From Promethearchaeati archaeon (lineage in GTDB: Archaea > Asgardarchaeota > Heimdallarchaeia > Heimdallarchaeales > Heimdallarchaeaceae), in contig JABLTJ010000001.1 of NCBI GenBank assembly GCA_013166775.1, positions 32,001-96,000 on the forward strand: DNA of 64,000 nucleotides. The letters run 5' to 3'. A model generated the notes under the pieces. It was not told where the DNA came from. It saw only the letters and a list, made by a program, of their open reading frames with translations, and did no database searches. Made by a program: the position numbers and the translations under genes. Below are positions 1 to 44,761 of the stretch, in pieces; within the stretch, counting starts at the first letter, position 1, and each line of letters begins with the position of its first letter.

Positions 1-419
1 TAAGCACTAGAATTATATCTATTGATAGTATTAGTTCTGCTTTAACCCACTCTGGAAATGAATCCTTTGTTAGAGGGCAAGAGTTATTCACAAAAGCAAG
101 CATGCAAGAAGTTCAATACATTCTATCAGAATTATATGATTTAATTCAGGAGTTTCCAAGAACAATTCGAACTCAAACAATGAAAAAAGTGCTTCTGACA
201 ATAAGCTATGTTACTGATTATCCTCATGAATTCATTATTGATAAAGGCTTATCCCTTGGTTACTTCAAACAAAAAAACGAATCTATAATTATCAATGTAG
301 CACCTGATCAATGTATAGAGGGTCTAATTGAAAAGTTATCTGATGATAAAACAAAGAAAGAACTCAATCAATATATTAAAGAGCAAAATTCATCACGTAG
401 AATATATATTCGAGATTGA
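1..419 (+). CDS. 5'-truncated protein, possibly C-terminal part of a KaiC/RAD55-like ATPase-domain protein
   Basis: Frame is open from the window start (STRIISIDSISSALTHSG...); IISIDSIS resembles the RecA/KaiC Walker B. Confidence 0.4.
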   Translation, partial: STRIISIDSISSALTHSGNESFVRGQELFTKASMQEVQYILSELYDLIQEFPRTIRTQTMKKVLLTISYVTDYPHEFIIDKGLSLGYFKQKNESIIINVAPDQCIEGLIEKLSDDKTKKELNQYIKEQNSSRRIYIRD

Positions 420-485
420 TATAATAAATCTCATAACTAAAAAAATATATAAATTCGATAGAAAAAAGTCTCGCGAGGCAAGAAG

Positions 486-770
486 ATGCAGATAAAAGTT
501 CTGAAAAAGGATAAAGGATATGTAAAACTGAATATAAAACAAACTGACCCTCATACATTATTTAATCTTTTAAGAGAAGAGTTGTTAAAAGACGATGCTG
601 TAGATTTTGCAGGATATTGGAGAGATGAATCTTTTTACGAATCAGTTGTTTTTCAAGTCAAGATGAAGAAAAAAACTGCAGATCCTATACCCGCAATTCA
701 TAGTGCTTTAGACAGGTTAAGAAAACAAACAGATGAATTTGTTAAAATCTGTAAAGAAAAAATCGAATAA
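486..770 (+). CDS. rpoL: DNA-directed RNA polymerase subunit L (Rpo11)
   Basis: HTLFNLLREELL..VDFAGY motif, 94 aa. Confidence 0.9.
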   Translation: MQIKVLKKDKGYVKLNIKQTDPHTLFNLLREELLKDDAVDFAGYWRDESFYESVVFQVKMKKKTADPIPAIHSALDRLRKQTDEFVKICKEKIE

Positions 771-786
771 AAGAGGATGGAGTCTT

Positions 787-1215
787 TTGGACGCATCTTT
801 CATTAATACTTTAAAATTTGAGGAAATATTTTCTAGCAATGATTTTGCTAAATTTGGTGATTCAGTTGTTAATTTTATCTACAATGCTGCAATTTTTGAA
901 GCACAGACAAAGTTACAAGGAATAAAAGTCTGGGATTCTTGCCTTGCTGAAGCATGCAAGAAATCTCCTTTGAGGAGTTATATTGGAAGCAGAAAGAATA
1001 AAGGTGAGCTAGGGGATGCTGTCGAAGCTTTCATTGGCTATATCTATTTAACGCACAAATTTCCACTAAACCAAATGATTGATATTTTAGCCAAATACCT
1101 AAAACATAGAAGCGGTCATGACGAAAAAAACGAACAAGAATTGTGTTCTGCAGCTTTCATTCATCTAGTTAATCATCTATGTGATAAACTAGGTATAGTA
1201 GATAAATTAATGTAA
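787..1215 (+). CDS. archaeal RNase III-domain family protein
   Basis: AKFGDSVVNF and GDAVEAFIG motifs; lies next to rpoL; likely TTG start after GAGGA. Confidence 0.75.
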   Translation: MDASFINTLKFEEIFSSNDFAKFGDSVVNFIYNAAIFEAQTKLQGIKVWDSCLAEACKKSPLRSYIGSRKNKGELGDAVEAFIGYIYLTHKFPLNQMIDILAKYLKHRSGHDEKNEQELCSAAFIHLVNHLCDKLGIVDKLM

Positions 1216-1231
1216 ATACGTATTCTGATTT

Positions 1232-1813
1232 TCATATTATGTAATTTTTGAAACTCTGTCCGATCATATCTGCTAATCTTAATCCTTCAGGAATTGAACT
1301 GGAATAAGTAGTGAATTGAAGAAGTTCTTTAACTTCTTTCTCATCTTTAAACCCAATATATTGAACAAACATTTTGCAGATTCTACTCATTTGATTCTTA
1401 AATTCCATTTTTTGCAAAGGGGGATTGAATTTTAAAATCTTATAACGTTCTTCCCAATCTACTAAATGAGATAAAGCACTTTTAACCTCTTTTTCATTCG
1501 GAAGTTGGGATAATACAGTTATCACAGGAATTGAAGTGTTTTCATGAAGTTTTTTCAAATCAATTATATTAAAAGCAGCAATAGTTGAGCTCCCAAGGAT
1601 TATAGCTTTTAGTTGATCTATGAATTTGCTTTCGTTTATCATCTTACTTATCTTCTCTGTTGCATCTAATCCATCAATCTTGATATTTGTGCGCAGTATT
1701 CCCTCCACCAAACTATGCCCTCTCATTATCACTCCAAAAACAAAAGTCTTCTTAGAGTTTTCTCTCTGAAAAGCTGCATCGTCAATACCAATTGTACGTA
1801 TATCTTTTTTCAC
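1232..1813 (-). CDS. DUF99/UPF0215 endonuclease V-like protein
   Basis: IGIDDA, DGLDAT, FNIIDL and IPEGLRLA motifs. Confidence 0.85.
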   Translation of the reverse strand: MKKDIRTIGIDDAAFQRENSKKTFVFGVIMRGHSLVEGILRTNIKIDGLDATEKISKMINESKFIDQLKAIILGSSTIAAFNIIDLKKLHENTSIPVITVLSQLPNEKEVKSALSHLVDWEERYKILKFNPPLQKMEFKNQMSRICKMFVQYIGFKDEKEVKELLQFTTYSSSIPEGLRLADMIGQSFKNYII

Positions 1814-4842: not shown

Positions 4843-5699
4843 AAATCTTCGCCTATTTTAGTTCTGATAAATTTGTACAAATCAATAAGTTCTACTAAAG
4901 AGAGTGTAAAAATCCTTCGTTCTAAGTACGGTAAATTGTTTACTATTTTATTTCTAAGCTCTCCATATCCCTTTCTTTTTAATAAATTGGTAATAATGCT
5001 TCGTAAGATTTTCTTCTTATGAGAAAAAATAAGCGTTATAAAATTATCAAAATCAGAGTTCATATTGACTGTAATCTTTTCTTTTCTTTTCATTGATACA
5101 ATAGCTGAGTCAATTTTCGGAGCTGGATAAAAGGAAGACGGTTTTACGGTTTTTAGATATTGACATTCTGATTTTAGATTTATCATTACAGTAAGTCTGG
5201 AATAATCTTTTGTCCCAACCTTTGCAAAAAACCTTTGAGCGAATTCTCTTTGAAACATTAAAATCGCAAAATCAAATTTCTTTTCCAATAACTTGAATGT
5301 TATTGGAGATGATATTTGATAAGGTAAATTAGAAACACACTTTGTAAAAGTGGGAAATTCAACTTTTACTGCATCTCCCTGGATAACCTCTACGTTTGAT
5401 GAGGTACTGAATTTATCTGATAAAAAACCAGCAAACTTGATGTCGGATTCTATGACATAAACGAATTTTGCTCTGTTTACTAAACATCTAGTGAGGTTTC
5501 CAACACCACCTCCTATCTCAAGAATGGTGTCAGAAGGTTTGATATTTGCATGATCCACTTGGAAATTTATGATGCTAGCACTTATGAGAAAATTCTGACC
5601 TTTGTGGTAATAAGGTTTAGATTCCATCTCTTTTAAGCTATCAAAAACATACTTCCTCAATTCAGACGAGGTTTTCCAACATTCCATTACTCTTACCAT
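4809..5699 (-). CDS. rsmA: 16S rRNA m6,2A dimethyltransferase KsgA/Dim1
   Basis: GQNFL, LEIGGGVG, SNLPYQISS and MFQREFA motifs. Confidence 0.95.
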   Translation of the reverse strand: MVRVMECWKTSSELRKYVFDSLKEMESKPYYHKGQNFLISASIINFQVDHANIKPSDTILEIGGGVGNLTRCLVNRAKFVYVIESDIKFAGFLSDKFSTSSNVEVIQGDAVKVEFPTFTKCVSNLPYQISSPITFKLLEKKFDFAILMFQREFAQRFFAKVGTKDYSRLTVMINLKSECQYLKTVKPSSFYPAPKIDSAIVSMKRKEKITVNMNSDFDNFITLIFSHKKKILRSIITNLLKRKGYGELRNKIVNNLPYLERRIFTLSLVELIDLYKFIRTKIGEDLWSDIFSLNMK

Positions 5700-5710
5700 A
5701 CAATCTAATA

Positions 5711-6376
5711 TTATTTTCTTGGACCCGTTTCTGGATTTGCTGTGAATAATCTGTGTTTTTCGTCTTCTTCTAATTCTTGTATGACTCTATTTAGAACCAT
5801 TTTACGAATGTCCGATATTTTTACCCTTTCTTCAACATCAATGAAAGAAACAAAAGGCATTCCTTTTCTGGTTTGTAATATTTCCCACATTAGTTTTTTT
5901 CCAATTCCAGGGATTAGTTGTAAGGAATGAATGCGATTGGTTATGGGTTGTGCTTTGTTAAAGAATGAAACAAATCTCTTCTCATTCTTATTGATTATTT
6001 TCAATACTGCTTCTTCTAAGGATTGATATCCGGTATTAGTGATATCATTAATCGTGAGTCTTCGTTTCACTTGTTTAATTGGAGATTTTTCACTAACTTT
6101 CGGTAGAGCAATTTCCTCAAACTGATTAAAAGATCCTCTTCTATCTGTTATCAATTCAAGCAGTGTAAACCATGTAGTTCCAATTCCTTGAATAATAGGT
6201 TCTCTTTGTTTATCTTGACCAAATCCCTTCCCTTCTGGCAAATAATCTAGTACTAATACTCGAGATTCTACTTTCTTAGATTGCTTTATGTGAGTAATTG
6301 GACCAATGATGAAATCATCGCTTTCACTACTCTTGTCCAGAATCTTATTTTTCTTAGGATGTCGGTTGTCTACCAT
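5711..6376 (-). CDS. DUF655 putative nucleic-acid-binding protein
   Basis: VLDYLP, FTLLEL, FFNKAQPIT.RIHSL.LIPGIGKK; conserved position between rpoF and ksgA. Confidence 0.9.
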   Translation of the reverse strand: MVDNRHPKKNKILDKSSESDDFIIGPITHIKQSKKVESRVLVLDYLPEGKGFGQDKQREPIIQGIGTTWFTLLELITDRRGSFNQFEEIALPKVSEKSPIKQVKRRLTINDITNTGYQSLEEAVLKIINKNEKRFVSFFNKAQPITNRIHSLQLIPGIGKKLMWEILQTRKGMPFVSFIDVEERVKISDIRKMVLNRVIQELEEDEKHRLFTANPETGPRK

Positions 6377-6454
6377 CTTCCTCTCACCATAAATAAGCAA
6401 AGACCCAAAAAAAGTTTTTGTTCTCCTTTAAATCAAAAAATAGAATTTTTTATT

Positions 6455-6808
6455 CTATTTCTCCTTTTTATATTTCTCAATAAAGGGTTTGATAATGTCA
6501 AACATCTTTTTTATATCTGTTTCAGTCAGCATCGTTTGTTCTTTTTGTAGCAAGTCTTTTAGTTCCTCAGGAGATGGAGGGAGAATATTTGCAATAGTAA
6601 ATGCTGATAGTTCTGTTAGATCAAATTGCTTCTGTAATTTTGTTAGAATTTCTAGTGACTCTTCAGGCTCTATACGTGCATTTTGCATAGCATGCTCAAA
6701 AGCAACACGTTGCCAGTAAGAAAGCTCTGATTCTTCACTTCTCTGTTGTAAAATACGCATTGCTTCTGAAATTGTTGTTGGTTTTTTAGCAAGAACTTCT
6801 CTAGGCAT
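6455..6808 (-). CDS. rpoF: RNA polymerase subunit F (Rpo4)
   Basis: ELSYWQR..EHA and IANILP motifs; next to eL21. Confidence 0.9.
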   Translation of the reverse strand: MPREVLAKKPTTISEAMRILQQRSEESELSYWQRVAFEHAMQNARIEPEESLEILTKLQKQFDLTELSAFTIANILPPSPEELKDLLQKEQTMLTETDIKKMFDIIKPFIEKYKKEK

Positions 6809-6820
6809 AAAATCACTATC

Positions 6821-7132
6821 CTAATTACTCTGTTGAATTACTGAACGACTTAAGCGTAAGTGTTCTCTATTAGCAATAATCTTCTTTATTGCTCTTCCTT
6901 GTTTTATTGATACTATGTAAGCTTTGCCCTGTTTTTTTGTAATCTCTCCGGTTTTTCCGTGATATCTTCTGTGGGGCATTCCCTTATGTTCTCCAGAATC
7001 AATAATAATATCTACAATATCTCCTTCATTAAAGTCTCTTAACAAATAGTCTGGAGGACGAAGACCCTTCTTTCTTGTATGTTTCTTGAAGAGACGTCTA
7101 GTACCATGACGATAACCTCTGGATTTTCGCAT
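6821..7132 (-). CDS. rpl21e: 50S ribosomal protein eL21
   Basis: SRGYRHGTR and KGMPHRRYHGKTG; start reassigned to ATG 7132. Confidence 0.95.
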   Translation of the reverse strand: MRKSRGYRHGTRRLFKKHTRKKGLRPPDYLLRDFNEGDIVDIIIDSGEHKGMPHRRYHGKTGEITKKQGKAYIVSIKQGRAIKKIIANREHLRLSRSVIQQSN

Positions 7133-7239
7133 CGATAATTCACCTATTATTGTATAGTATCTTGTAAGTGTGCAAAATCCCTCACTGTAACTTTTAATCT
7201 TTTCGTTCTTCGTTTTAGAAAAAGTAGAGTATTTGTTTT

Positions 7240-8562
7240 TCAAACAAAGGGTTTATCTCTAATCTCTAAAACATCTAATTCTTTACAATTTGCTTGAATC
7301 CCGATTACTTCGCTTACACTTGGAATTGTTCGATTATCATCCCCTGAAATTAGTTCTTTTACATAACATCCACCCTCACACTCAATAGTCAGCTCTATTT
7401 CCTGATTGTTTATTTTCCTACTTTGAATAGAATAGACCTCTTTTTTTCTAATTTTATCGGCTCTTCTATGAGAAACTCGAGTTGGTGTCCTTTGTTTAAT
7501 AGTTATATCCTTAAAATATGAATCAAGCTTCTTCAAAGTTTCTTCTGAAATAGAAGAACTTAGAGTGACAAATGCTCTGTATTTCTTAACGGATTCTTCA
7601 GCATTTCCCTTAAGATAAACAAGCTCTTTTTTTGATGACCAACGATAATCTCTCACTTCTATTTTTCCTTTTCCATATTCATTTGTTGCCTTTTCCAATT
7701 TGAGGAGGTCTATTGATCTAATTTTAGGAGAAACAATTTCTAGAACGAACGGTCTTCCTGTTCCAAGCATTCTGGCATCAATATCTTCTCGACCAGATCC
7801 ATGTAAGACTCCTTTATCACCTTGTGCTATCTTTATAGCTTCAGCTTCAACAAGTTCCTCTACCGATTCTGAGTATTGCTTTCCTGTATTACTGCATTCT
7901 TTACACCCTTTTCCTTTACATTTTCTGCATGGCCAGCGTGTTTGAGGAATTGTTCTAAGATGTTTTAAGTACCGTCCATAAATATACAAAGATCGAACTT
8001 TAAGTTTCAGAGAATCAGAAAAAGGTTGTATCTCTGCAATAATTTCAGGCTCGTTGAAATTTGTTTCCACAGACATTTTTCTTGAGAGTTTTTTTCCAAC
8101 TTCTCTATTAAATTCCTGTTTCAAGTATTCTGATTGATGCAAATCGTATTTTGCCTTCAAATTGTGTTCTTTTTCAAACAATTCTTGGGGCATTAAAGTC
8201 CCTATTAGGAATGTACTAAATTCAATTGAGTTAAGTTTCAAAGAAAGATTTTCAGCAAGCTCATCTATTCTTTGTAGAGAATTTTTACATATGAAGCACA
8301 TCTCTTTCTCTTTTGGAATTATTTTGATTTTTGACAGAACCATTTTAGCATGTTCTGAATCCGATTTACACAGTGCTTGAAGAAAATTTATGCTATCATC
8401 AGTAATCCTTTTGGAAAAATTCATTACTAAAAACATTTTAATTGATTCTCCTCGAATGAAATTCGTTGTACCAGTAGCAAGATTTGAAAATTGCCTCCCA
8501 AGACAGTAATTACATAGTGAGTGGTTGTTAAGTAATTGAATTGTTTTCTCTTGTAAATCCAT
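7240..8562 (-). CDS. pus10: tRNA pseudouridine(54/55) synthase Pus10
   Basis: CNYCLGRQF, GREDIDARMLGTGRPF, QRTPTRV and GCYVKELISGD motifs. Confidence 0.95.
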   Translation of the reverse strand: MDLQEKTIQLLNNHSLCNYCLGRQFSNLATGTTNFIRGESIKMFLVMNFSKRITDDSINFLQALCKSDSEHAKMVLSKIKIIPKEKEMCFICKNSLQRIDELAENLSLKLNSIEFSTFLIGTLMPQELFEKEHNLKAKYDLHQSEYLKQEFNREVGKKLSRKMSVETNFNEPEIIAEIQPFSDSLKLKVRSLYIYGRYLKHLRTIPQTRWPCRKCKGKGCKECSNTGKQYSESVEELVEAEAIKIAQGDKGVLHGSGREDIDARMLGTGRPFVLEIVSPKIRSIDLLKLEKATNEYGKGKIEVRDYRWSSKKELVYLKGNAEESVKKYRAFVTLSSSISEETLKKLDSYFKDITIKQRTPTRVSHRRADKIRKKEVYSIQSRKINNQEIELTIECEGGCYVKELISGDDNRTIPSVSEVIGIQANCKELDVLEIRDKPFV

Positions 8563-27887: not shown

Positions 27888-28196
27888 ATGAATCTTAAAA
27901 CTAGAAAAAAAGATAGGTTATCTGAAGTTTGGTCTAAACTAGCTGCTACATTATGTGGCTTGAAGCTTATCATAAAAGAAAGTTCATCTAAAGAACTGGA
28001 GGGAATTAAGGGATTAGTTTTAGAAGAAACAGCTCAAATGATAAAATTGAAAACAGAGGAAAAAACAATCTGGATTCCAAAGAAGAACCAGTTTTTTGAA
28101 ATAGAACTGAAAAATGGTTTAAAATATCTAGTGGACGGTAAGATTTTGCTTGGAAAGCCTGAAGCAAGAATTAAAAGAAAAATCCCAAATTGGTAA
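27888..28196 (+). CDS. rnp1: RNase P protein Rpp29/Pop4
   Basis: GIKGLVLEET, IPKK, GKPEARIK; canonical position. Confidence 0.88.
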   Translation: MNLKTRKKDRLSEVWSKLAATLCGLKLIIKESSSKELEGIKGLVLEETAQMIKLKTEEKTIWIPKKNQFFEIELKNGLKYLVDGKILLGKPEARIKRKIPNW

Positions 28197-28323
28197 TAAG
28201 AAGCAATTTTACGTATTTTATTCCACTAAAGAGATTTTTCTTAACAATGAAAAGGATTAAAAAGATAAGAGAGGGGAAATGATAGTCAAAAATAAATTCT
28301 ATTAGAATATAAATAGGATTTGA

Positions 28324-28420
28324 GGTATTTGACGTCTTACTCCAAGAAAATTGGAGCCGAGATTGTTAGCTCTTTACTTTTGAATAATAAAGAGCGAACA
28401 TGGGTATAAGACGCTGTACC
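28324..28420 (+). ncRNA. candidate structured cis-regulatory leader of uS17 (three-way junction)
   Basis: Nested complementary stems GGTA/TACC, CGTCTTA/TAAGACG, CTCCAA/TTGGAG, TGTT/AACA, GCTCTTTA/TAAAGAGC, abutting the GAGGTGG SD. Confidence 0.6.
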
Positions 28421-28435
28421 GAGGTGGAAAAAAGA

Positions 28436-28768
28436 ATGTCTAAAGTAAAAAATATAGGACTTCCAGGTGTAGAACCACCTGCAACAGAATGCGAAGATCC
28501 TCGTTGTCCTTTTCATGGTAAACTTCCTGTAAGAGGAAGGGTTTTCCAAGGTAAAGTGATATCAGATAAAATGAGGAGAACTGTAGTTATCCGACGAGAT
28601 TTCTTGAAATACGTAAAGAAGTATAGAAGATACGAAAGAGCTCACGGGAAGATTTCTGCTCATAATCCACCATGTCTCAATGTAAAAGAAGGAGATGTGG
28701 TCTTAGCTGCAGAATGTCGTCCATTAGCAAAAACAGTCAGTTTCGTAGTCGTTCAAAAGTTGAAATAA
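28436..28768 (+). CDS. rps17: 30S ribosomal protein uS17
   Basis: CEDPRCPFHG, KYRRYE, ECRPLAKT. Confidence 0.96.
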   Translation: MSKVKNIGLPGVEPPATECEDPRCPFHGKLPVRGRVFQGKVISDKMRRTVVIRRDFLKYVKKYRRYERAHGKISAHNPPCLNVKEGDVVLAAECRPLAKTVSFVVVQKLK

Positions 28769-28777
28769 GGTGGTATT

Positions 28778-29194
28778 ATGGCGAAAAGAAAAACAGTTGG
28801 ACGAACTCAAGTTCATATAACAAAAGGACTAATGGTGGGCTCCAAAATTAGATGTGCAGATAATTCTGGAGCAAGAATAGTGCAAATTATAGCTGTAAAG
28901 CACTATAGAGGAAGACTCAATCGTATCCCTCGTGCCTCCGTATCAGATATGGTTATTGTATCTGTAAAGCAAGGAACTCCTCAAAGAAGAAAACAGATTT
29001 TTTCAGCGGTTGTCGTAAGACAAAAATTAGCTTATCGTCGCCGTTCTGGAGATTGGATTCAATTTGAAGAGAATGCTGTTGTGTTAACAAACGAAGTAGG
29101 GGATCCCATTGGAAGTGAAATTAGAGGACCCATTGCCAAAGAAGCAGCTGAAAAATGGCCAAGGATTGCTCATCAAGCATCCATTATAGTTTAG
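28778..29194 (+). CDS. rpl14: 50S ribosomal protein uL14
   Basis: CADNSGA, FEENAVV, GPIAKE. Confidence 0.97.
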   Translation: MAKRKTVGRTQVHITKGLMVGSKIRCADNSGARIVQIIAVKHYRGRLNRIPRASVSDMVIVSVKQGTPQRRKQIFSAVVVRQKLAYRRRSGDWIQFEENAVVLTNEVGDPIGSEIRGPIAKEAAEKWPRIAHQASIIV

Positions 29195-29205
29195 GAGTGA
29201 TGAAG

Positions 29206-29766
29206 ATGACAGCAATAAAAACAAAACAACCACGAAAACAACGTAAAAGATACTTCAAAGCTCCTTATCACATTCGAAACAGAATGATGACAGCTCCACT
29301 CTCTGATGCACTTAGAGAAAAATATGGCGTTCGTCGTCTTCCAGTTCATAGGGATGACAAAATTGTGGTTTTCAAAAACAAATCAGGCGATGAGGAAATC
29401 AAAGGAAAAGTAATTAAAGTTTTACCTCAACAATACGCAATTCATATTGAAGGACATAGTAAAGAGAAAGCTGATGGTACCATTGTTAGTTTTCCTGTTC
29501 ATCCAAGCAATGTTGTAATTACTTCTTTACATTTAAGAGATAGAAAACGTAGAGAAATGATTCAGCGACGTTCAAGGAAGGAGCTTACTGAAGAAGAGTT
29601 GACTGCGGGAATATATGATGATGAGGAAGAGTTAGAAGAAACTCTTGAAGATCATGACATCCCTGAGGAAGAAGATCTATTTGAAGAATTTGAAGAATTA
29701 GAAGCTGATGACTCTGCAGCGGTTGAAGACTCTACAGAAGCTGAAAAAGAGGAGGTGTCATCATGA
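29206..29766 (+). CDS. rpl24: 50S ribosomal protein uL24 with acidic C-terminal tail
   Basis: KQPRKQRK..APYH, LREKYG, HPSNV. Confidence 0.95.
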   Translation: MTAIKTKQPRKQRKRYFKAPYHIRNRMMTAPLSDALREKYGVRRLPVHRDDKIVVFKNKSGDEEIKGKVIKVLPQQYAIHIEGHSKEKADGTIVSFPVHPSNVVITSLHLRDRKRREMIQRRSRKELTEEELTAGIYDDEEELEETLEDHDIPEEEDLFEEFEELEADDSAAVEDSTEAEKEEVSS

Positions 29767-30530
29767 CAAAAAGTGGTAGCAAAAGACATCTAAAGAGATA
29801 TATGGTTTCTAAACATATTCCTGTTTCCAAGAAAGAATTCAAGTATACAGTTAAACCAGCTCCGGGACCACATGCAGCAGATGATTGTATCCCTATAGCA
29901 ATTTTGCTCAGAGATATGTTCAACTACGCTCGAAACATGAGTGAAATAAAGAGAATTTTATACGAACGAAATGTAGTTGTAGATGGGAGAGTAAAAACAA
30001 ATAGAAAACATCCTTTAGGATTTATGGATGTACTTTCATTCCCAAAAATAAACGAGCACTATAGGTTGATTTACTTGCCAAAAATGGGACTTAGAACCGT
30101 TCCAATAACTGAAAACGAAATGAATGTAAAACTGTGTCAAATCAAAAATAAGACTACAATAAAAGGAGGATTGACTCAAATAAATCTTCATGATGGTCGA
30201 AACATAATTTTAAGTCCAGAAGATTCAAAAAACCAATCCTATTATACTCATAACACATTGAAAATATCCATTCCAGACCAGAAAATACTAGAAAGCTATG
30301 AATTGAAAATTGGCAATTATGGTTTTGTTACAAGTGGTAGATGGATGGGTAAGCACGGGATTATTGAAGAAATAAGTAGTCATGGAACAAAGAAAACACG
30401 AACAGTGACATTAAACACATCTGAAGGAGAAAAATTAGTTACTCTGTACCGGTATATCTTTGTTGTTGGAGCTGAATCTCCAAGTGTAACTATTGAAGGC
30501 AAGAAGATAAAGGTGAAAGCTAATGAGTGA
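29763..30530 (+). CDS. rps4e: 30S ribosomal protein eS4
   Basis: HLKR, PGPH, VDGRV, GFMDV, QINLHDGRN. Confidence 0.96.
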   Translation: MTKSGSKRHLKRYMVSKHIPVSKKEFKYTVKPAPGPHAADDCIPIAILLRDMFNYARNMSEIKRILYERNVVVDGRVKTNRKHPLGFMDVLSFPKINEHYRLIYLPKMGLRTVPITENEMNVKLCQIKNKTTIKGGLTQINLHDGRNIILSPEDSKNQSYYTHNTLKISIPDQKILESYELKIGNYGFVTSGRWMGKHGIIEEISSHGTKKTRTVTLNTSEGEKLVTLYRYIFVVGAESPSVTIEGKKIKVKANE

Positions 30531-31089
30531 TGAAGCTGTAGAACAAGAGACTTTTGTACCTCAATTTGCTGAGGAGTGGGAAAAAAGTCCAATGAAAAAA
30601 CCTCGATTAACTGCTTTAATTATTAATGCTTCTATTGGTGAATCAGGACCAAGATTCGAAAGAGCAAAAGAGATTTTGCGACAGATTACAAACAAAGAAC
30701 CAGCGGATAGACATGCTAAAGAAAGTGTTAGAGGTTTCAATATCAGAAAAGGAGAACCCATAGCTGCTTTAGTTACATTAAGAGGAGAAGATGCTAAAAC
30801 AATGCTAAAAAGATTGCTTTACGCTTATGATTATATCTTAAAAGCAAATTCTTTTGATAATCAAGGAAACTTTGCCTTTGGTATAAACGAACATGTCGAT
30901 ATCGAAAATGCACCATTTGATCCAATGTTAGGAACTATAGGATTCAATGTAGTTGTAAAACTGGAAAGATCTGGTTATAGATTGAAGTATAGACAAAGAA
31001 AAAGAAAGAAGATCCCCAAAAAACATTTGTTAAATCCATCAGAAGCAATGGAGTTTATGAGGACAGAGTTTGGGGTGAAGATAATTTAG
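30523..31089 (+). CDS. rpl5: 50S ribosomal protein uL5
   Basis: FNIRKGEPI, FDNQGNFAFGINEH. Confidence 0.96.
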   Translation: MSDEAVEQETFVPQFAEEWEKSPMKKPRLTALIINASIGESGPRFERAKEILRQITNKEPADRHAKESVRGFNIRKGEPIAALVTLRGEDAKTMLKRLLYAYDYILKANSFDNQGNFAFGINEHVDIENAPFDPMLGTIGFNVVVKLERSGYRLKYRQRKRKKIPKKHLLNPSEAMEFMRTEFGVKII

Positions 31090-31099
31090 GTGACGGAAA

Positions 31100-31267
31100 A
31101 TGCAAAAAAGAAGAGAAATTAACTATGGAAAAGGATCTCGAACCTGCAGACGTTGCGGAACACACAAAGCTATTATTAGGCGAGGTGGTTTGTCTGTCTG
31201 TAGAAGATGTATTAGAGAAATTTACACCAAAATAGGCTTCAGAAAAACAGGAAGTCGTGGAGGATAA
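31100..31267 (+). CDS. rps14: 30S ribosomal protein uS14 (55 aa, not in ORF track)
   Basis: Manual translation ...YGKGSRTCRRCG...VCRRCIRE...IGFRK. Confidence 0.95.
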   Translation: MQKRREINYGKGSRTCRRCGTHKAIIRRGGLSVCRRCIREIYTKIGFRKTGSRGG

Positions 31268-31279
31268 GGAGGTAATAAT

Positions 31280-31669
31280 ATGCAAATGGATACACTATCA
31301 GATGCTTTAACTGCAATCTTGAATGCTGAAAAGACAGGAAAGAAAACCGTCACTGTTAAACCTGCAAGCAAGATAATCGCTAATGTACTAAGAACTGTAC
31401 AAAGAGCAGGATATCTCGGCGAGTTAGAATATATAGAAAATCATAGAGGGGGCATGTTCGATATCCAACTTCTTGGACGAATAAACAAATGTGGAGTTAT
31501 CAAACCTCGTTTTCCTGTTAAAAAGGATAAATTTGAAGAAGAAGAAAGGAAATATCTACCTGCTAGAGGTTTTGGGATTATAGTAGTTACTACTCCAGAA
31601 GGAGTTATGAGCCACGAAGATGCAAAAGAAAAAGGAATTGGAGGACGTCTATTAGCCTATATGTTCTGA
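31280..31669 (+). CDS. rps8: 30S ribosomal protein uS8
   Basis: GRINKCGVIKPRF, LPARGFG, GGRLLAY. Confidence 0.97.
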   Translation: MQMDTLSDALTAILNAEKTGKKTVTVKPASKIIANVLRTVQRAGYLGELEYIENHRGGMFDIQLLGRINKCGVIKPRFPVKKDKFEEEERKYLPARGFGIIVVTTPEGVMSHEDAKEKGIGGRLLAYMF

Positions 31670-31678
31670 GGTGATTAC

Positions 31679-32230
31679 ATGCAACAATTATATTTAAAAA
31701 GGGATATTGAATTGCCGGAAGATGTTACTATTACACTGAAAGATAATGTTGTAACAGCAGAAGGAGCTAAAGGAAAACTCACACGAGATTTCTCTGATTT
31801 CGATGTAGAATTGAAGAAAACGAAGACAAAAGTCAACGTTAAAGCTTATTTCATCAACAAGAAAAAGAAAGCTAAAGCATTAGCTTTAGTAGGCTATATT
31901 CAAAACATGATTAAGGGAGTAACTGAAGGGTATATTTACAAATCAAAAATAGTCTATAGTCACTTTCCCATCACAGTGGAACCAGATAATAAGAAGAAGA
32001 CTGTAGCCATAAAGAATCTATATGGTGGTCGGAAACAAATTAACGTTCCAATTATTGGCGAAGAAACAACTGTGAAAGTGGAAAAAGACGATGTAATAAT
32101 TGAAGGAATAGATAAGCAAGCTGTTGGACAGACAACTGCCAATATGCAAGAAGCTTGTAGATTGAGAGGTAAGCGCAGAAAAGATCCTGAAACTTTTCTT
32201 GATGGAGTCTGGCGTTGGGATCGAAATTAA
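31679..32230 (+). CDS. rpl6: 50S ribosomal protein uL6
   Basis: NMIKGVTEG, YSHFP, KDPETFLDG. Confidence 0.96.
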   Translation: MQQLYLKRDIELPEDVTITLKDNVVTAEGAKGKLTRDFSDFDVELKKTKTKVNVKAYFINKKKKAKALALVGYIQNMIKGVTEGYIYKSKIVYSHFPITVEPDNKKKTVAIKNLYGGRKQINVPIIGEETTVKVEKDDVIIEGIDKQAVGQTTANMQEACRLRGKRRKDPETFLDGVWRWDRN

Positions 32231-32383
32231 TACAATTTCTTCATTTCACCACACTCTTTTTTTTTCCTAGATTTATCACTTATTTTTTCACTTATGAATT
32301 TCTTAACAATAACAAGTATTAAAAAGTCCATTAGAAGTGATAGCATAATACTTTGATAAGGTAACATTCTACTGTGAGTCCCT

Positions 32384-44630: not shown

Positions 44631-44735
44631 TCGTTTGTGCTATAATTGAAAGAAAGCACATGGCGAAGCTCGATGGAGAACAACTCTCCCATTCTTGAAT
44701 TAAGAAGTGTAGAGCACTGCAACTTCGGGTTGTGG
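44631..44735 (+). ncRNA. candidate structured leader of the uS13-uS4-uS11 operon
   Basis: Hairpin + three-way junction + hairpin built from consecutive complementary stems. Confidence 0.6.
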
Positions 44736-44761
44736 AATACAAAATAATGAAAAGTGATAAT

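Follow-up and report, generated by a model that had tools for sequence, protein, structure and literature searches.

The leader of the uS17 operon in Heimdallarchaeaceae contains a three-way-junction RNA that directly abuts the Shine-Dalgarno (SD) sequence of the first gene. Judged by sequence comparison, the element is a real, well-supported structured RNA that is previously undescribed and restricted to this family. We consider it somewhat probable (about 55%) that it represents a new r-protein leader and serves as a translational operator to which one of the eight proteins of the operon binds; the transcription start site (TSS), the protein nature of the ligand, and how and in which direction control is exerted are inferred. 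A preliminary description had proposed a new Asgard r-leader for this operon. The RNA it placed next to the SD proved to be conserved, covarying and Rfam-negative, whereas its Asgard-wide scope did not hold up. All positions refer to the window, i.e. the whole stretch of 64,000 nucleotides that was analyzed.

Genomic context of the uS17 leader

According to Pfam, the genes are arranged in the order uL22, uS3, uL29, Rpp29, gap, uS17, uL14, uL24, eS4, uL5, uS14, uS8, uL6, eL32 and eL19. The gap described earlier as 240 nt long is present and measures 239 nt from the Rpp29 stop (28196) to the ATG of uS17 (28436). The region comprises the following features:

27888-28196, plus strand: Rpp29 (Pfam), in the same orientation as uS17 in this genome
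28240..28264, plus strand: conserved BRE/TATA-like, promoter-like box, CTTAACAATGAAAAGGATTAAAAAG, near-invariant in genera g1, g3, g4 and g5
28293..28322, plus strand: upstream hairpin Pa of 11 bp, from the fold of 28284-28470; species-variable and outside the conserved core
28324..28420, plus strand: three-way-junction core (MFE fold, RNAalifold consensus, pair counts, covariance model R1)
28324-28327 with 28417-28420, plus strand: P0, GGTA with TACC, present in the sequence
28331 with 28414, plus strand: extra pair G28331-C28414 from the comparative analysis, absent from the preliminary list
28333-28339 with 28407-28413, plus strand: P1, CGTCTTA/TAAGACG; the consensus keeps 28333-38 with 28408-13
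28339, plus strand: junction residue A28339 of the consensus architecture
28340-28356, plus strand: P2, CTCCAA-GAAAA-TTGGAG, 28340-45 pairing with 28351-56 (sequence, fold)
28357-28359 with 28401-28403, plus strand: P3 base of 3 bp, C28357-G28403, C28358-G28402 and G28359-U28401 (comparative analysis; not listed before)
28360-28363, plus strand: conserved 4-nt bulge (comparative analysis; not listed before)
28364-28400, plus strand: P3, TGTT-A-GCTCTTTA with TAAAGAGC-G-AACA, 28364-76 pairing with 28388-400 (sequence, fold)
28404-07, plus strand: J3/1, GUAU, of the consensus architecture
28421..28427, plus strand: SD, GAGGUGG, directly 3' of P0 and complementary to the genome's own 16S 3' end (...GGAUCACCUCCU)
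28436..28768, plus strand: uS17, first cistron of the regulated unit (Pfam Ribosomal_S17, 1.1e-25)
28778..32230, plus strand: uL14, uL24, eS4, uL5, uS14, uS8 and uL6 (ORF list, Pfam, sequence)

Pfam agrees with the earlier list of controlled genes, uS17-uL14-uL24-eS4-uL5-uS14-uS8-uL6. The seven gene junctions from uS17 to uL6, read from ORF coordinates, lie between an overlap of 8 nt and a gap of 12 nt, and nine consecutive Ts are located 3' of uL6 (32257-32265). Within this unit, uL24 (window 29155-29766) carries a strongly acidic, D/E-rich C-terminal tail of about 65 aa outside the Pfam domain. Translation of uL24 probably begins at the ATG near 29200, downstream of the uL14 stop codon.

Within the genus, the DNA 5' of the promoter-like box consists of Rpp29 in the same orientation, of a divergent uL22-uS3 pair or of unrelated genes. 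Box, leader and uS17 remain joined in every one of these upstream arrangements, be they inverted or replaced. Since box and leader are kept with uS17 despite the upstream rearrangement, we regard the element as part of the uS17-to-uL6 transcription unit.

The S10-like part of the cluster (uL22-uS3 and neighbors) is found co-linear with uS17, inverted and divergent, or relocated within one genus (loci L009, L012-L014, L016, L021 and L023 versus L002-L006, L018 and L024; also L007, L010, L011, L017, L020 and L022). The breakpoint always lies just 5' of the promoter box. The element can be read as the marker of a recurrent rearrangement breakpoint and of a putative internal promoter within the classical S10-spc cluster. 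A survey of Asgard r-protein clusters reported truncated S10-spc clusters in some Heimdall genomes and did not mention a leader or promoter.

The 25-nt box is situated about 60 nt 5' of P0. With up to five mismatches over 25 nt, it occurs at two sites in the 3.85-Mb genome, 28240-28264 and 32302-32326, the second of which follows uL6 and the nine-T run and precedes eL32. In four other species, a DNA search likewise matched the box sequence at some 4 kb 3' of the leader. The spacing between TATA box and TSS is characteristic in archaea, and from the usual distance a TSS is predicted at about 28281-28290. A TSS downstream of P1 had been named as evidence against a leader; the promoter-like box, by its predicted position, sits 5' of the structure.

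The two near-identical boxes have the common form CTTAACAAT-R-A-M-AAG-K-ATTAAAAAG and, placed before uS17 and before eL32, divide the classical S10-spc cluster into units. The common CTTAACAAT part 5' of the BRE/TATA sequence could be a candidate factor-binding site.

Genus g2 differs in that the Rpp29 stop is located 4 nt before P0, with a TATA-like sequence inside the coding end of Rpp29. Leader transcripts of this genus may begin at the junction or arise by read-through, and there is no room for hairpin Pa. Every species has some hairpin at the Pa position, but these hairpins cannot be aligned and are absent from the consensus structure.

Structure and conservation of the junction

The ViennaRNA MFE fold of 28324-28420 is a three-way junction with an energy of -30.2 kcal/mol compared to -16.8 +/- 2.9 for shuffled sequences (z = -4.56), and none of 200 shuffles equaled the native energy. 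This fold is identical to the one proposed before, with P0, P1, P2 and P3 all at the coordinates claimed. The structure ends, likewise as claimed, at 28420, one base before GAGGTGG (28421-28427). The architecture including the P3 base and the bulge was also obtained in single-sequence folds of seven other species covering five genera (z from -2.3 to -5.0). In Heimdallarchaeum, P3 comprises only 5 bp and P0 is changed from GGUA/UACC to AAUA/UAUU.

When 60 relatives were searched by DNA, the gap sequence before uS17 was found throughout the genus with 70-94% identity. A MAFFT alignment of 24 leaders (A1), which is independent of any covariance model, yielded an RNAalifold consensus consisting of P0 with 4 bp, a G-C pair, P1 with 6 bp, a 7-bp P2 hairpin, a 3-bp P3 base (CC-R with U-GG), a 4-nt bulge and a 9-bp P3. 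In A1, 94.7% of the cells pair compared to 36-50% with slid partners, 14 of the 30 pairs show compensatory changes, and none of 500 shuffles matches these values. The covariance model R1 was built from A1 and scores 100.6 bits at the window locus. In alignment A3, comprising 29 distinct sequences fitted to R1, 95.3% of the cells pair (36-46% with slid partners), again with no match among 500 shuffles, and compensatory pairs rise to 19 of 30: three of four in P0, all seven in P2 and eight of nine in upper P3. Overall, conservation and covariation in relatives, proposed earlier as a check, are strong both by RNAalifold and by pair counts on the two alignments.

P1 is essentially sequence-invariant among the 29 sequences. 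As its 7 bp are fully invariant, this helix is almost without covariation support, and its invariance may also reflect some further constraint. Further invariant or near-invariant elements surround it: in addition to GACGUCUUA and AAGACGC of P1, these are the junction A, the first P2 pairs, the G and U of J3/1 and the sequences CC-R-W-R-AUUG and YAUGGGU that make up the P3 base with its bulge. About 35 nucleotides are invariant across five genera, while peripheral stems and loops vary freely. Such a pattern would be expected if the junction formed the center of a specific recognition surface.

A coding function or uORF was rejected: TTG and AUG frames are not kept, loop indels are not multiples of three and, in L005 and L025, the invariant CAUGGG holds its AUG in a frame other than that of uS17. 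The non-triplet indels and the out-of-frame AUG show that the conservation is not due to coding.

Contact with the Shine-Dalgarno sequence and proposed mechanism

In 30 of 30 instances the SD abuts the 3' strand of P0 with a spacing of zero, even though both change in sequence (UACC followed by GAGGUGA, UACC followed by GGAGUGAU or UAUU followed by GGAGUUGAUCA). The SD is unpaired in all predicted folds, and the start region is not paired either. Neither the consensus nor the folds of long transcripts contain a conserved anti-SD or alternative helix, and no switch is visible. Sequestration of the SD was rejected, as the motif harbors no conserved SD complement and the CUCC of P2 covaries away. 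An alternative 5' helix (GUCAAA/UUUGAC) occurs in the long-transcript fold and not in the consensus fold. A search for an intrinsic terminator or attenuator found none, and the U-rich L3 loop is not conserved.

We propose that the internal promoter (box 28240-28264) would start a transcript about 35-40 nt 5' of the junction and that the RNA would fold such that P0 and P1 close a junction holding P2 and P3. One of the eight encoded r-proteins, once in excess over free rRNA, would then bind the sequence-invariant junction via a surface comprising P1, the first P2 pairs, the CC/GG base of P3 with the 4-nt bulge and the GU of J3/1. Because the 3' strand of P0 touches the SD, the bound, rigid junction could block or trap the 30S subunit at the uS17 start. 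Given an unpaired SD and no conserved anti-SD, it would act by steric exclusion or 30S entrapment rather than by sequestration. The packed downstream cistrons would follow by translational coupling and/or mRNA decay.

An SD that is unpaired in all predicted folds and always follows right after P0, together with the lack of any conserved alternative or switching helix, would also suit a constitutive, ligand-free 5'-UTR element that fixes operon expression at a high level. Such an element might insulate the SD from upstream sequence, serve as a ribosome standby or stacking platform, or protect the mRNA 5' end against 5'-3' exonucleases. We regard this explanation as possible but doubtful. The roughly 35 invariant positions include a 7-bp helix, a 4-nt bulge and the junction, while the other helices covary, and an invariant junction amid covarying helices argues for specific recognition over mere stability. 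In addition, related families manage without any leader.

Distribution

R1 detected one copy in 28 of 30 Heimdallarchaeaceae genomes, representing all five genera; among the members of this group are Ca. Heimdallarchaeum endolithica PR6, H. aukensis PM71 and AB_125. The two genomes without a match also lack uS17 in the assembly, so that the element is present in 28 of 28 genomes with uS17 assembled. The order comprises three further families, and in 16 of their genomes R1 found no copy. When about 185,000 GTDB species genomes were scanned for an exact pattern, 78 matches were returned, among which R1 accepts Heimdall-type contigs only. The element is single-copy in its own 3.85-Mb assembly and lies upstream of uS17 on the same strand in 30 of 30 instances. 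The term Asgard was therefore too broad: the motif is confined to Heimdallarchaeaceae, and other Heimdallarchaeia have a different leader or none.

One leader (99 bits) is found together with an archaeal uS17 on JAIVYW010000060.1 (L171 / L098), a 7.6-kb contig deposited as 'Candidatus Atribacteria bacterium', which is almost certainly a mis-binned Heimdallarchaeaceae contig. In another genome, the end of a contig carries a second box and the 5' two-thirds of a leader (L148, G004:C102:95002-95160). This partial copy holds P0, the 5' strand of P1, P2 and most of P3 before it runs off the contig, and it follows an unrelated 395-aa ORF on the minus strand; the complete copy of the same genome is located on G004:C30. 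A mobile or repeat element or a paralogue was rejected, given that the element is single-copy and that the partial copy is probably due to redundancy in the assembly or to heterogeneous strains.

Rpp29 abuts or overlaps uS17 in Hodarchaeota (L085) and in families f2 (L150) and f4 (L149). The sister family f3, including a Kariarchaeota-labelled MAG, has a gap of about 300 nt between Rpp29 and uS17 in the four loci with Rpp29 detected. We refer to its leader as 'Type B' (loci L152:1838-1959(-), L154, L155, L156, L157, L158, L159, L160, L161, L162 and L081). In single-sequence folds, its features were seen in all ten f3 genomes with uS17 assembled: CCUGAY, a covarying closing helix of NNAGCC with GGGUUNN, a GGAA-nRUCAGG-UUCC hairpin with a loop that complements the CCUGAY located 5' of it, and a second hairpin with an anti-SD-like CCCUC loop. 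Pairing of the first hairpin loop with CCUGAY would make a possible pseudoknot. The CCUGAY/RUCAGG helix, which has a single compensatory pair, was the only element recovered by MAFFT and alifold. The 3' boundary of this leader, as cut here, is located 2 to 30 nt before the uS17 ATG (10 loci). It thus resembles the Heimdallarchaeaceae leader in the gap between Rpp29 and uS17 and, in single-sequence folds, in its three-way junction, but it has other sequence motifs and is not detected by R1. Non-homologous, lineage-restricted leaders at one operon are usual for r-protein autoregulation (PMC3616713, PMC7247131).

Known RNA families and alternative functions

At the gathering score, Rfam 15 reported three tRNAs in the whole window and no match in the leader region; at E <= 10, the leader region yielded only three chance-level matches of 16-17 bits. 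A match to a known sRNA family, which the preliminary description had counted against novelty, was thus not obtained with Rfam. A C/D-box sRNA was rejected, as snoR116 reached 17 bits against a cut-off of 47 and was located in the non-conserved upstream part. On reading the sequence, no motif common with the uS13 leader of the same genome (window 44631-44761) was seen.

In that the junction and bulge are invariant and the peripheral stems covary, the conservation is reminiscent of riboswitches, and many aptamers are three-way junctions. A riboswitch-like sensor for ions or small molecules (e.g. a polyamine, Mg2+ or a growth-rate signal), or for another RNA, is nevertheless unlikely. The riboswitches of Rfam gave no match even at E <= 10, a fully invariant P1 is unusual for riboswitches, neither an expression platform nor conserved alternative pairing was seen, and the element occupies one site per genome, only before r-protein genes. 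That a ligand-sensing RNA (for a metabolite, ion, alarmone or RNA), and not an r-protein operator, gates the synthesis of the eight r-proteins appears quite improbable to us. If it were true, the element would belong to a riboswitch class that governs ribosome production in the archaea most closely related to eukaryotes, and the unrelated RNA of the sister family would constitute a second solution to the same task.

The position of the element just after Rpp29, which encodes an RNase P subunit, in its own genome (G000) and many relatives, at a distance of only 4 nt in genus g2, could mean that a non-ribosomal trans-factor binds or processes the RNA at this site. The factor might be an RNA-binding protein specific to the lineage, or else an endonuclease that cuts the upstream S10-like transcript apart from the uS17 unit. 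We hold this to be improbable as well: the element stays with uS17 where Rpp29 is not adjacent, the promoter-like box separates the two in four of five genera, and the Rfam tRNA model does not match the element. Reading the sequence by eye revealed no bulge-helix-bulge geometry. A K-turn, as a site for L7Ae, consists of a 3-nt bulge followed by tandem sheared G.A/A.G pairs; here, the bulge is followed by UUG/CA Watson-Crick pairs and neither strand contains a GA tandem, so that this identity was rejected.

Finally, its own promoter-like box and the compact, stable fold would allow the element to act in trans, either as a separate small RNA gene or as an sRNA derived from the 5' UTR. This is very unlikely: the structure is not set apart from the SD by an oligo-T terminator and the RNA would continue into uS17, the SD distance is fixed at zero in all species and the weak C/D-box-like match is confined to the non-conserved upstream part.

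Search for the ligand

An r-protein leader may resemble the rRNA site of its regulating protein. The search for such a resemblance yielded no convincing rRNA mimic, and R1 scored at best 10.9 bits on the own 16S and 23S loci and the 5S loci of two relatives. The sequence UGGGUAUAAG, which spans the 3' base of P3, J3/1 and the start of P1, shows a 10-nt identity with nucleotides 1826-1835 of the own 23S rRNA, which we take to be part of H62 by homology to the E. coli sequence. In the 50S subunit, H62 is a neighbor of uL14 and bL19 (PMC11814078). Two of the ten positions of this identity vary among leaders, and about 0.4 chance 10-mer matches are estimated over the whole leader. uL14 may serve as a first, weak guess for the ligand.

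Other look-alikes fall partly on species-variable leader positions. Helix h8 of 16S rRNA carries GGGUAUAA and GAGAUU in a topology that differs from the leader and is a weak look-alike, and the base of h42 weakly resembles the AUUG-helix-CAUG arrangement. Mimicry of h42 was rejected because the h42-binding proteins are not encoded in the uS17-to-uL6 unit, and complementarity to 5S rRNA was not borne out by Heimdall 5S sequences. The uS8 operator of E. coli is located at the uL5 start, and the core of h21 is an asymmetric internal loop of AAGUC opposite GAUAC. This h21-like core is absent from the leader, in which P1 is regular Watson-Crick, no such loop was seen by eye and the site lies at the uS17 start; a uS8 operator or 16S h21 mimic was consequently rejected.

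Heimdallarchaeaceae 5S rRNA is divergent: the Rfam 5S model gave no match in the own genome and 19-31 bits in relatives (cut-off 38), and the own copy, G000:C54:89252-89373(-), was found by BLAST with the relatives' candidates (L142, L143, L144 and L145). The genes for 16S (99-1611, minus strand) and 23S rRNA (4985-8366, plus strand) are divergent on G000:C52 (L032, L033) and about 3.4 kb apart. The 23S match of 3382 nt compared with a model of 2987 positions suggests expansion segments.

Discussion

In E. coli, uS17 belongs to the S10 operon, and control of spc spreads to the downstream cistrons by coupling. The spc operator, bound by uS8, resembles the leader described here in that it serves largely the same genes (uL14, uL24, uL5, uS14, uS8 and uL6) and is a structured mRNA site near the ribosome-binding site (PMC3616713). 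However, the E. coli site is located at the start of uL5 and mimics the internal loop of 16S h21, whereas the Heimdallarchaeaceae element is a three-way junction at the start of uS17. Closer in architecture is the rpsO (uS15) operator of Thermus thermophilus, a 5'-UTR three-way junction by the start site that, as Serganov and colleagues are said to have reported in 2003, is bound by an r-protein recognizing a three-way junction in rRNA. The likeness concerns the architecture; protein and operon differ, and the operator is bacterial.

Among archaea, the candidate leaders L4-Archaeoglobi and eL15-Euryarchaeota (PMC7247131) and the Methanococcus L1 operator are likewise lineage-restricted, structured and identified by covariation. 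The element presented here was not matched by the Rfam 15 models, and the study of Eckert and Weinberg 2020 contains no uS17 or spc-type leader and no Asgard motif (PMC7247131). Overall, very few archaeal r-protein leaders are known. We came across no description of one from the Asgard archaea, a group in which ribosomes and gene regulation attract interest because it is so close to eukaryotes. The motif would merit a new Rfam family.

With about 100 nt, strong covariation, an invariant core and direct contact to the SD, the leader is a tractable candidate. The presence of a different RNA in the sister family and of none in other relatives offers a natural comparison for the origin and replacement of leaders. 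In conclusion, the motif could show how the synthesis of r-proteins and rRNA is balanced in Heimdallarchaeaceae.
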